From a virus, in the UHGV virus genome UHGV-0147509: DNA of 39,944 nucleotides; one strand, given 5' to 3'. The notes under the pieces are model-generated. The model was given only the letters and a program-made list of their open reading frames with translations, was not told the origin of the DNA and made no database searches. The position numbers were made by a program, and so were the translations under genes. The stretch's first letter is position 1. Each line of letters begins with the position of its first letter. Below are positions 4,673 to 9,031 of this stretch, piece after piece.

Positions 4673-6661
4673 ATGACAGACATTACAGCCAATGTTGTAG
4701 TGAGCATGCCTTCGCAACTCTTCACTATGGCTCGTTCTTTTAAAGCTGTAGCTAATGGCAAAATTTATATCGGTAAAATTGACACTGACCCGGTAAATCC
4801 TGAAAACCAGATTCAGGTTTATGTGGAGAACGAAGACGGTTCTCACGTTCCTGTTGCACAGCCAATCATCATTAACGCCGCTGGTTATCCTGTATATAAC
4901 GGACAGATTGCCAAATTCGTTACCGTGCAAGGCCATTCTATGGCTGTTTATGATGCGTATGGGGCGCAGCAGTTCTATTTTCCGAATGTGCTAAAGTATG
5001 ACCCGGATCAGTTAAGAACCGAACTATCTATTAACGGTGGTGCCGGATTAGTTGGCGCAGGAGTTATATCTAGAGGTAATGATAAGTTTTCAATAATGCA
5101 GGGCAGGACATCAGAGTATTTAAATGATGGTCTTACATACGGTATTGGTATCATTATTAATGATTCAATTGTTGGTTCTGTTCCTAATGCAAGCACAGCT
5201 AAAATAAACTATATCATGATTAATGATGACAGAATTAATGCTGTTGATGACCAATCGGCAGGCACAAAAGTTGACGGGTTTTTAGTTCACCATAATTTCG
5301 GATATCAAGAAGCAAAAGGTGGCAGACACGCCGGAGAGTTTGTTTTAACTCACGAAGCAGCCACAAACTTAGAAAATCCTGATAGAAATTATGTTGGTGT
5401 TGTTGGTCTTGCGGTTTCACAAAATGGTGATGGTGGAACGATATCATCATTACCTGGTACATTCAAAGGAGCATATTTTGGCGGAAATATGTATGGACGC
5501 CTGGATTCTGCTGCGGTTGGAGTTTATAACGTTACAGGGTGTGAGTTTAATGTTTCCGCGTTAGTAGGTTCATCTGTATGGTATCGATCAGGTATTCAGA
5601 TTGTCGGTGGTGGTGATGTTCGAGGTACTGCTGTAGATACTGGTATTGCCTTATCAAACCTTTCTACTTCAACCGTTCGCTGGAAAAACGCTATTCGCAT
5701 AGGCAACATGAATGGGGGGCACGCCCTAGGAGGAGATAGTAAAATACTTGTTGCATTTACAGATGTGCCATCCATAACATCAGGATTCGAGATACCAAAA
5801 TGCTCATCAATGATATTGATGTCAGGTGACGTTACTTTACAAAATAGTAAATTGAATATCGCATCTGTTGGCTCATCTATTGAACTTGGTAGTACAACAG
5901 ATTCCGGTGTTTCATATATTGACTTTCACTCAAGCGGAAATAATGTTGATAACGATGGAAGGATTTTCTGTTCTGGTGGTTCTGAAGATTCTGGTGATGG
6001 GACTATTGGATTTAATTCTTCAATCATTCAACTTAACTCAAAAACAGAAATAGTCATGGGGTCTGGCATTAGACCATCTCTTGACAACACCTATGATTAT
6101 GGAACAGCTTCCAAAAGAGGAAGAACAGCGTATTTTGGTACCGGGTCAATTAATACATCTGACTCTCGCCATAAACCAATCAAAGAAAAAATACCAGAAT
6201 ATATTCTTGACGCGTGGTCAGAAGTAGACTGGGGGACATGGTTTAAATTTGATGACGCAATAGCGATAAAAGGAGAAGATGGTGCGAGATGGCACTTTGG
6301 ACTGATTGCGCAGCGTGTTGAAAAAGTTTTTTCATCACATGGAATAGATGGATTTAAGCTTGGCTTGCTATGTTATGACTCATGGGATGACGTTTACGTT
6401 GATGTGCAGACAAATATAGGGGAGGTGGTAAAAAAAACAAGAGAAACGAGCGATGGAAATACAGAAGAATATACTGAACCTGCCCCTGCAAAATTTAAAA
6501 AGGTTCTTGATACACCAGCTGGTGAAAGATACGGAATTCGTTATGAGGAGGCCTTGTCTCTCGAGGCTGCATTACAACGGCGTAACTACTTTCGTTTGCT
6601 GGAGAAACAAAAAGAGTTAGTTATGCGTATTGAGAAAATAGAGGGTATACTTGGAATGTAA
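4673..6661 (+). CDS. tailspike protein (P22 gp9-like head-binding N-terminus, divergent receptor domain, C-terminal intramolecular chaperone-like domain)
   Basis: N-terminus [43 protein letters not shown] closely matches recalled P22 gp9 head-binding domain; C-terminal region with SDSRHK motif resembles peptidase S74 auto-cleaving chaperone domains; SD GGAG upstream. Confidence 0.85.
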
Positions 6662-6795
6662 ATTTTATATATCACAGTATATCTAGACACATTATGTGTC
6701 ACTTACCTATATGAATGGCGTGGCAACAAAAACTGTGGCATATAAGCTTTGCACTGGATTGCAAGGCTTTGTGCTATTCGATAGTTTAAGGTCGC

Positions 6796-7953
6796 TCACT
6801 CTACCTTTTCATCAAGCCAGTCCGCCCACCATTGCATCATTTCTCTGCGTTTATCGAGATACTGAGCATGGTTGTAAATCCCACGCACAGATCCGCCGTT
6901 GGCATGTGCCAGTTGCACTTCAATGGCGTCAGCAGGCCATTCGTGCTCGTTCATAATTGTGCTGAATTCATGCCTGAATCCGTGACCGCTTTCCAGACCC
7001 TCATAGCCGATTTGTTTGATCACAAGCAATACCGCGTTCTCGCAGATTGGCTTCTTCTTATCGTTGCGCCCGGCAAAAACAAACTCTGATACTGGTTTAG
7101 TGATGGAGCTTAGCGTAATGAGAAGTTCAACTACCTGGTCTGACATAGGAACCACATGAATTTTGCGTCCCTTCATCACATTGGCGTCGATGGTGATAAT
7201 CCTGTTTTCAAAATCGACGTTCTTCCATTGCATGGAACGAAGCTCTTTCGTTCTTAGGGCTGTGTAGCGTAAAACTTTGGTCGCAATGAGCGATACGATA
7301 CTTCCTGAAAATGTTGCCAGTGCTTTGTTGAATGCCGGGATCTGGTCTGCAGGAAGAAACGGGAAGTTCTTCTTGCGGTATCCCTTCATGGCGTCAGCAA
7401 GGTCAGGTGCCGGGTTATATTTAGCCCTTCCGGTGACAATAGCGTAACGGAAAACCTCTCCGCATCTTCTGCGTGCTTTGTTGGCTCGCTCCATTGCACC
7501 GCGATCTTCAAATCTGCGGATTACTTCCAGCAGTTGCATCGGCTCAATATCCTGAATTTCAAGGCCGCCGATGATAGGTAAAATGTCGTCATCAAACATT
7601 TTTGCAAGTTCATTTGCATATCCTACTGACCAGACTTGCTTCTTGTGCTCGTACCATTCCTTGTAAATGGCGCTAAAGGAATTGTTGTTAGACGAAGCCT
7701 TTTTCGCCTTTACCGGATCGATGCCGACTGAGATCTCTTTCCTCGCAGTCCATGCTTTATCCCTTGCCTCCTGCAAAGTCATAAGCGGATATTTTCCGAC
7801 GGTCAGGATTTTCTCCTTACCGTCAATCTTGTAGCGAAGCTGCCAGACCTTTTTTCCGGATACAGGGACATAAAGGTACAGGCCATTACCATCGAGAAGG
7901 CGGTATGGTTTTTCTTTCGGCTTTGCTGCTTCAATCTGCTTAACGGTGAGCAT
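6796..7953 (-). CDS. int: tyrosine integrase, P4 family
   Basis: N-terminus MLTVKQIEAAKPKEKPYRLLDGNGLYLYV is a typical P4-type arm-binding region; C-terminal HGFRHEF and RGIYNHAQY catalytic motifs; ATG at 7953 preferred over the upstream GTG at 7989. Confidence 0.9.
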   Translation of the reverse strand: MLTVKQIEAAKPKEKPYRLLDGNGLYLYVPVSGKKVWQLRYKIDGKEKILTVGKYPLMTLQEARDKAWTARKEISVGIDPVKAKKASSNNNSFSAIYKEWYEHKKQVWSVGYANELAKMFDDDILPIIGGLEIQDIEPMQLLEVIRRFEDRGAMERANKARRRCGEVFRYAIVTGRAKYNPAPDLADAMKGYRKKNFPFLPADQIPAFNKALATFSGSIVSLIATKVLRYTALRTKELRSMQWKNVDFENRIITIDANVMKGRKIHVVPMSDQVVELLITLSSITKPVSEFVFAGRNDKKKPICENAVLLVIKQIGYEGLESGHGFRHEFSTIMNEHEWPADAIEVQLAHANGGSVRGIYNHAQYLDKRREMMQWWADWLDEKVE

Positions 7954-8202
7954 GGGTAAAAATCCGGTGGGTAAAATTATTTTATCCACTTTTTACCCGT
8001 CATGGTGTGCGGCTGTCAACGATCTGACGCGAACCATGCCGAACTGTGAATCTACGGAAGGCTTGATATTCAGGGGATTTCGCGGACTGGTACGGATGGG
8101 AGCGAACTGATAAATGGTGTCCCCTGCAGACATCTACTTGACGAGGCAGGGGATTGATTGGAATGGTGTTTTTTAGATGTGAGAAATATTTTACCCGCTA
8201 TT

Positions 8203-8403
8203 TTACCCATTGGCGCGGCTTAAAAGCTTATTCTTGAATTCACAATGGTCACGATATAACCATCTTGCTCGCCCGTGGATAACTTTGGCTTTTGGCAGGT
8301 CGCCGGACTTAATCCGGTCGTAGATGAAGGTTTTACCAAAGCCAGTATCAGCCATGATGAATTTCAAATCAACCAGGGAATCAGGCTGTAGTTCGTGTTG
8401 CAT
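8203..8403 (-). CDS. xis: excisionase / AlpA-like DNA-binding protein
   Basis: 66-aa ORF immediately upstream of int on the same strand; GRARWLYRD-type motif typical of AlpA/Xis family proteins. Confidence 0.65.
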   Translation of the reverse strand: MQHELQPDSLVDLKFIMADTGFGKTFIYDRIKSGDLPKAKVIHGRARWLYRDHCEFKNKLLSRANG

Positions 8404-8422
8404 GAGTGCTATCTCCGAATAG

Positions 8423-8438
8423 GGAATCGAACCTGCAA
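8423..8438 (-). other. tRNA-Arg (argW) T-arm-like 16-mer, candidate attP core or remnant
   Basis: Minus-strand TTGCAGGTTCGATTCC matches the recalled T-stem/loop of E. coli argW; similarity ends after this block, with no acceptor stem or CCA, so not a tRNA gene. Confidence 0.35.
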
Positions 8439-8448
8439 ATCAGGTAAT

Positions 8449-8470
8449 AAAAAAACCGCATTGATGCGGC
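8449..8470 (-). terminator. candidate intrinsic terminator on the minus strand upstream of xis-int
   Basis: CCGCA-TTGA-TGCGG hairpin at 8456-8469 preceded on the plus strand by an A-run (a U-run after the stem on the minus strand). Confidence 0.5.
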
Positions 8471-8528
8471 GATGGTAGGTCTGGATATCTTGAGAAATGA
8501 ACAGTCCTCATCGAGTGTGAGGCTGTGG

Positions 8529-8873
8529 TTAGTCCTTGCGTAACTCGCTAATTCTTCTGTAAGTCTCTGGTGCTTTGTTTCCGTGTATCTTCATTTCAGA
8601 CTTCAACAGAGCAACGAGGGAATCCCATTCGTTGAGGATTCCTTTGAATGCCGGAACGCGCTTTGCAACCTTGTCGAATGAATCTCTTATTTCTGGGATC
8701 TGCTCAACAAGTGAAACGCATCGTCTGAAATCTGCTGCGTCATGGGGAGCGCCGAAGTGATGACCATAGATATTCTTTTTCAGTCCACATGCGATTGAGG
8801 CAAGAGTTGCGCTACTGATGCCGACATCGCCAGTCGATTGCCATTTCAAAATCTTCATAGCCAAATCTGACAT
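8529..8873 (-). CDS. hypothetical early protein
   Basis: 114-aa ORF with ATG start in the leftward early (ea) region. Confidence 0.55.
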   Translation of the reverse strand: MSDLAMKILKWQSTGDVGISSATLASIACGLKKNIYGHHFGAPHDAADFRRCVSLVEQIPEIRDSFDKVAKRVPAFKGILNEWDSLVALLKSEMKIHGNKAPETYRRISELRKD

Positions 8874-9031
8874 TTCTTGTCTCCATAAAACAAAACCCGC
8901 CGTAGCGAGTTCAGATAAAAGAAATCCCCGCGAGTGCGAGGATTGTTATTGTCTTTGCTTCGTGCATTTGTCGCACTTTCTGCACCATCCAGATAGGCAC
9001 ATCCGTCCGCAATTAACACATATAGGCCACA

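Follow-up and report, generated by a model that had tools for sequence, protein, structure and literature searches.

Non-coding junction where the tailspike and integrase genes of UHGV-0147509 converge, and an attP core located between int and xis

Two questions are raised by the short stretch of DNA that separates the tailspike and integrase genes of the virus genome UHGV-0147509: whether it takes part in integration, and whether its lack of O-antigen modification genes is out of the ordinary. The whole stretch of DNA analyzed here, referred to as the window, is 39,944 nucleotides long. In phages lambda and P22, attP is found beyond the 3' end of int. The original prediction regarded the spacer as this conventional attP location, in competition with an argW-like fragment upstream of xis, and described it as a gene-free interval of about 134 bp containing one hairpin. 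The reading favored here, with a probability of about 0.8, is that the spacer is a junction of two convergent units and of two joined modules, with a predicted int terminator and an empty conversion-gene slot, and that integration takes place at positions 8109–8129. The spacer would then be the non-coding meeting point of two convergent transcription units, namely, the late operon ending in the tailspike gene, and int. The features at and around the spacer are the following.

4673–6661, plus strand: tailspike gene, 662 amino acids, identified by Pfam and PDB matches
6662–6728: spacer half linked to the tailspike gene, a non-coding, AT-rich 3' flank, delimited by genome and phage searches
6686–6700: small hairpin GACACA-TTA-TGTGTC with a 6-bp stem and a 3-nt loop, located by an exact position check
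6729–6795, minus strand: spacer half linked to intS, which is the conserved untranslated 3' flank of the IntS module, identified by homology
6736–6776: imperfect palindrome, a predicted terminator, with inner stem 6744–6753/6760–6769 and loop CTGGAT
6796–7953, minus strand: integrase gene intS, 385 amino acids, identified by identity to K-12 IntS and by Pfam domains

The tailspike–int spacer occupies 6662–6795 and is non-coding, with convergent genes on either side. It is bounded by the tailspike stop codon (TAA, 6659–6661) and by the integrase stop codon (TGA, minus strand, 6796–6798), so that the predicted length of about 134 bp is exact, and no credible ORF is present. Three mechanical ORFs of 30–86 amino acids (6586–6702, 6707–6799, and 6696–6956) were rejected as genes, as all extend into the flanking genes and none has a Pfam match.

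The protein encoded on the left contains a P22-type head-binding domain (Pfam Head_binding, E = 3e-67) and, at its C-terminus, an endosialidase-type Peptidase_S74 intramolecular chaperone (E = 2e-10, residues 496–557). Its PDB matches are to the N-terminal domains of the Sf6 and P22 proteins and to the endosialidase chaperone 3GW6. The tailspike couples a P22 head-binding domain and an endosialidase-type chaperone around a receptor-binding domain without assigned specificity. Its nearest phage relative is that of EcoPhCCP1 (58% identical), and the allele is rare, being found in one of 5426 complete E. coli genomes.

The small hairpin had been placed at 6685–6699. Its sequence is indeed present, but the coordinates were off by one position, 6686–6700 being correct. 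Its folding energy is −6.6 kcal/mol. Perfect 6-bp stems with loops of 3–8 nt occur 92 times in the window, i.e., about 0.31 per 134 nt, and when the spacer is shuffled with its dinucleotides preserved, one or more comparable perfect 6-bp hairpins turn up in 22% of cases. The small hairpin is therefore no more than is expected by chance. It has no adjacent U-tract on either strand, and it is without demonstrable role.

The location of attP was examined with the features that lie on the other side of int, listed below.

7954–7998: arm-type repeats GGGTAAAA, three exact copies and one near match, forming the P' arm and overlapping the int promoter region
8109–8129, minus strand: attP common core GATAAATGGTGTCCCCTGCAG, defined by attP/attL/attR identity and genome breakpoints
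8189–8208: arm-type repeats GGGTAAAA, two copies, forming the P arm and overlapping the 3' end of xis
8203–8403, minus strand: gene for the excisionase (recombination directionality factor, RDF) TorI, 66 amino acids, 66/66 identical to annotated TorI
8423–8438, minus strand: second argW-like fragment TTGCAGGTTCGATTCC, an exact 16-mer match to argW nt 46–61

When the window is aligned with K-12 attL (the argW–intS side) and with an attR (the torI side), the three are identical only over GATAAATGGTGTCCCCTGCAG, at 8109–8129. The reverse complement of this core corresponds to the last 15 nt of argW (nt 61–75) followed by 6 nt of downstream DNA, and 10-mer matching places the last 15 nt of argW (CTGCAGGGGACACCA) at 8115–8129 on the minus strand. 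Matches to 7850–8450 in about 1900 E. coli genomes are interrupted at query positions 259–266, i.e., window 8108–8115, and the unbroken attP form is found in only 17 E. coli records. Among 80 IMG/VR loci, the attL form, with the argW T-arm before the core, is seen in 66 and the attP form, with the phage arm as in the window, in 6, while 4 loci start exactly at the core. HK620 and Sf6 also annotate an "attP core" at the equivalent of 8109–8129, and the attP of Kapi1 has been placed between int and xis (bioRxiv 10.1101/2021.04.09.439263).

Prophages that carry the same spacer are available for comparison. An exact look-up of the tailspike protein retrieved three NCBI assemblies (L094, L095, and L097) with an identical tailspike, in which the order is tailspike, spacer (0/134 mismatches), int, complete argW, yfdC, and mlaA; the complete argW lies 162 nt upstream of int in all three. 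A 39.9-kb metagenomic scaffold (L096) has the attP form, as does the window. The comparison of prophage junctions that had been proposed as a check therefore places the argW junction at the core and leaves the spacer contiguous inside the prophage. Since the spacer is internal to the integrated prophage, it cannot hold the crossover; the crossover core that was sought there lies at 8109–8129 instead.

The repeats point to the same site. The window contains GGGTAAAA six times as an exact copy; five of these, at 7954–7998 and 8189–8208, flank the core, and the attP repeats of HK620 are annotated at equivalent positions, including HK620 1441–1463. The proposed search for arm-type repeats within 6662–6795 returned none, even with one mismatch allowed, and the spacer contains no argW match of 10 nt or longer. 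The full argW 3' end (as a 23-mer with up to three mismatches) has no match in the window, only the last 15 nt being common, and ARAGORN detects no tRNA in the window.

Thus, the proposal that the spacer is or contains attP, with the hairpin in the core or in an Int/IHF region, retains practically no probability. It has in its favor the usual lambda/P22 position of attP and a relative that shares tailspike and spacer and carries a lambda-type core, GCTTTTTTATACTAA; this core lies outside the spacer, about 210 bp beyond an 84-bp intS relic. The proposal is refuted by the prophages integrated at argW, in which the spacer is identical at 134 of 134 positions and contiguous between tailspike and int, and neither an GGGTAAAA repeat nor an argW match was found in it at the thresholds given above. 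All junction evidence points to 8109–8129. It is concluded with very high confidence that attP is the 21-bp core at 8109–8129, between int and xis/torI, and that the spacer has no part in integration. The core recombines with the tRNA gene argW at its 3' end. Because attP is located between int and xis, these two genes come to lie at opposite ends of the prophage. The attP annotation thus belongs at 8109–8129, 1.3 kb from the spacer, and the prophage boundaries split int from xis.

The proteins encoded next to the core agree with this assignment. The integrase is identical to K-12 IntS (prophage KplE1/CPS-53) at 380 of 385 residues, with ATG 7953 as its start, and contains the Pfam domains Arm-DNA-bind_3, Phage_int_M, and Phage_integrase. 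The same start codon, giving 385 residues, is used in homologues and in gene calls, including those of L093–L097. The mechanical ORF begins at GTG 7989 and encodes 397 residues; its extra 36 nt (7954–7989) were rejected as coding DNA, being occupied by arm-type repeats and the promoter region instead. The torI gene is annotated in E. coli genomes. Given the IntS (380/385) and TorI (100%) identities, the window carries the IntS/TorI recombination module of the KplE1/HK620/Sf6/CUS-3 type, as published. Indeed, the integrase is of the IntS type with an arm-binding N-terminal domain, the RDF is of the TorI type, and an argW-end core, CTGCAGGGGACACCAT, lies between int and xis, which are at opposite prophage ends. 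TAAA-type arm repeats, putative sites recognized from their sequence, flank the core and overlap the int promoter. The core of KplE1 is CTGCAGGGGACACCAT, and the module is common to HK620, Sf6, and CUS-3 (PMC2951348; PMC3509656). The P' arm sites have a TAAA motif in common, and int in the KplE1-type module is subject to autoregulation from a promoter within attL (PMC2951348).

The argW-like fragment upstream of xis had also been considered as an att candidate. An argW-derived core does exist, but it is located downstream of xis and upstream of int. The fragment itself, at 8423–8438, lies upstream of xis, inside the cII-dependent pI promoter region predicted/annotated in HK620. It was rejected as the crossover, since in an integrated prophage the phage DNA continues through it (8109–8897 compared with L003, 96%). 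In argW numbering, TTGCAGGTTCGATTCC (46–61) abuts the piece present in the core (61–75), an arrangement that appears as if argW 46–75 had been split by a segment of about 294 bp containing xis. By a rough estimate, a chance match of this 16-mer is expected about 1e-3 times per window. At the right edge of the recombination module, a terminator-like hairpin, GCCGCATCAATGCGGT, followed by TTTTTTT is present on the minus strand at 8455–8470, and it is at 8470, coinciding with this hairpin, that homology to HK620 and Sf6 stops.

The spacer itself consists of two mosaic module ends joined near 6725–6729, because in many phages and in 2296 E. coli genomes the homology to intS-downstream DNA starts at 6725–6729, and the left half occurs exclusively with this tailspike. 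Of 5426 complete E. coli genomes, a single one contains positions 6655–6735, at 100% identity and beside the same tailspike; phage records have no match, a distant blastn search of the left half included. The left half is identical in L093–L097 and always adjoins the same tailspike. On the right, the match to HK620 apparently starts at 6750, which is the origin of the circular HK620 record.

A further arrangement of this DNA is seen in prophages (L002, positions 5663–6105, and L092) in which the spacer together with an 84-bp relic of the intS 3' end (6796–6879) adjoins the lambda-type att core GCTTTTTTATACTAA. These prophages are integrated at att-lambda, beside ybhB and bioA, and the relic is also present in phages JEP4, Gally, and 434. 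The combination of spacer and relic looks like the scar of an IntS module replaced by a lambda-type int module.

With regard to gene content, it had been claimed that no O-antigen modification genes separate tailspike and int, and this is borne out: the 134 bp contain no ORF and gave no tblastn match. Indeed, no gtrABC, oac, or HK620-type O-antigen gene was detected in the whole window (tblastn, best E = 0.09) with K-12 yfdGHI (YfdG/H/I, GtrA/B/C-like), HF4s GtrC, Sf6 Oac, and the HK620 O-antigen modification protein as queries. The accompanying statement that relatives often carry cargo at this position is also correct. Examples are the O-antigen modification gene of HK620, oac of Sf6, gtrABC of HF4s, neuO of CUS-3, and yfdGHI of K-12 KplE1. 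This position is where lysogenic-conversion cargo (gtrABC, oac, neuO) is usually inserted, and in this genome the slot is empty.

To place this empty slot among its relatives, 80 IMG/VR loci with an IntS at least 98% identical were surveyed, of which 48 have a convergent P22-type tailspike downstream. The gap between stop codons is short (63–231 bp) in 35 of these 48. A cargo-free tailspike–int junction is the majority state among the sampled IntS-linked P22-type tailspike loci. Thus, the missing gtr/oac genes are neither unusual nor informative on the integration site.

The possibility that the spacer is a deletion scar, in which an ancestral gtrABC/oac-like cargo was lost and the left half is its remnant, is considered unlikely. 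Relatives with the same int module do have cargo at this position, one of them (L021) keeps only part of gtrA between int and tailspike, and the tiny ORF that Kapi1 has here is acyltransferase-like according to its authors (bioRxiv 10.1101/2021.04.09.439263). Yet, tblastn reveals no remnant of GtrA/B/C, Oac, or the HK620 protein in or near the spacer, and the left half matches nothing but the flank of the same tailspike. Short gaps, moreover, are the majority state with many different tailspikes, which fits an empty slot as well as it fits repeated loss. The empty slot is thus retained as the preferred reading.

The dominant structure of the spacer is the palindrome at 6736–6776, which the original prediction did not include. 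Its folding energy is −20.6 kcal/mol on the plus strand (tailspike sense) and −11.1 kcal/mol on the minus strand (int sense), and an equally good local fold is found in 0.3% of shuffles. The palindrome is kept downstream of intS in HK620, K-12 KplE1, and about 50 other loci. In relatives whose int–tailspike gap is only 63–92 bp, it is essentially the sole element between the convergent genes. At the homologous site, the HK620 record has the label "terminator for prophage excision transcript", which is itself a prediction.

The same fold has a bearing on the proposal that the spacer encodes a small regulatory RNA or a micro-protein, as a tiny moron replacing the conversion genes. The plus strand folds better than its shuffles (z = −3.1) and the slot is a known moron position, but this fold signal derives wholly from the conserved int-flank palindrome. 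No Rfam match was obtained at E ≤ 1 for 6400–8600, and a consensus scan detected no promoter-like site inside the spacer; the sole promoter-like match nearby is weak and is directed out of the spacer, antisense to the tailspike gene. None of the small ORFs matches a known family, and all overlap the flanking genes. This proposal is accordingly judged very unlikely, and the palindrome is interpreted below as part of a convergent junction.

In an alignment of 52 distinct relatives, the palindrome helix, specified manually, is paired in 85% of cells, in comparison to 21–50% in slid-partner controls. Covariation among these relatives is not above that of shuffled controls and individual pairs are broken in 14–17 of the 52, so that structure-based selection on the palindrome is not demonstrated. 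No consensus structure was obtained for the int-flank element with RNAalifold. A consensus scan for canonical intrinsic terminators, i.e., a G+C-rich stem with a U-run within 0–2 nt, found none in the spacer on either strand. Of these elements, the stem is present in the palindrome, whereas the U-rich stretch is displaced or interrupted. In the int sense, a U-run (CAGUUUUUGUUG) begins about 10 nt past the palindrome stem, and UGUCUCAGUUUUGUCU comes after the int-sense hairpin in relatives.

Two C-to-T transitions distinguish the palindrome from its K-12 and HK620 counterparts. They are located at window positions 6741 and 6743, in the outer arm, and change CACACAAA to CATATAAG on the plus strand. 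G·U pairing is kept in the tailspike-sense RNA, whereas C·A mismatches arise in the int-sense RNA, with the loss of two pairs, which weakens the palindrome in that sense. The same variant is also present in the other copies of this tailspike module.

These features suggest that the palindrome most likely stops int transcription. It probably also stops read-through from the tailspike gene, as the two transitions leave G·U pairs in place of G-C pairs in the tailspike sense. A terminator function is a reasonable interpretation of the sequence, held with moderate confidence. A more elaborate possibility is that the two transitions have re-tuned the palindrome so that it folds strongly only in the tailspike-sense RNA. 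It would then act mainly as a late-operon terminator that shields int from antisense read-through, i.e., a strand-selective switch of a shared terminator after cargo loss; or else the private 67-bp left half might contain an unrecognized small regulatory element. We regard this as quite improbable. The reading of the palindrome as a terminator of int transcripts within an ordinary convergent junction is kept.

Collectively, the junction is ordinary and matches what has been published on the IntS/TorI module, and is in this respect already known. Its importance is limited to correct annotation, and an empty conversion slot is common in argW-integrating P22-like phages.

Comparison with known systems places the locus more precisely. 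In the lambda prophage, attP separates sib from int, which results in retroregulation. Like lambda tI/sib, the palindrome of UHGV-0147509 is a hairpin directly downstream of int and is expected to end int transcripts. Unlike sib, it is linked to int in both states, so that no sib-type switch is possible; sib-like retroregulation was rejected, as attP is not between int and the hairpin. Compared with the conversion slot of P22, Sf6, and HK620, the spacer is found at the same place in the genome, where the tailspike and int genes converge, but it is empty. The junction of Kapi1 is similar in that this phage is P22-like, integrates at argW, and has a tailspike–int gap of about 170 bp without recognizable gtr/oac genes; it is reported to modify the O-antigen although known conversion genes are lacking. 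Yet, the two spacers are non-homologous, homology beginning only inside int (window 6802), the Kapi1 spacer is annotated with a 35-residue ORF, and the tailspike is a different one. Close, too, is the relationship to the recombination module of KplE1 (CPS-53), HK620, Sf6, CUS-3, and Kapi1: IntS and TorI are 99% and 100% identical to the K-12/E. coli proteins, respectively, and the core, the position of attP between int and xis, and the placement of the arm repeats are the same. The differences from the KplE1/HK620-type module are the two transitions in the outer stem of the palindrome and the absence of cargo after int. HK620 and K-12 have the same DNA flanking int on its 3' side, palindrome included.
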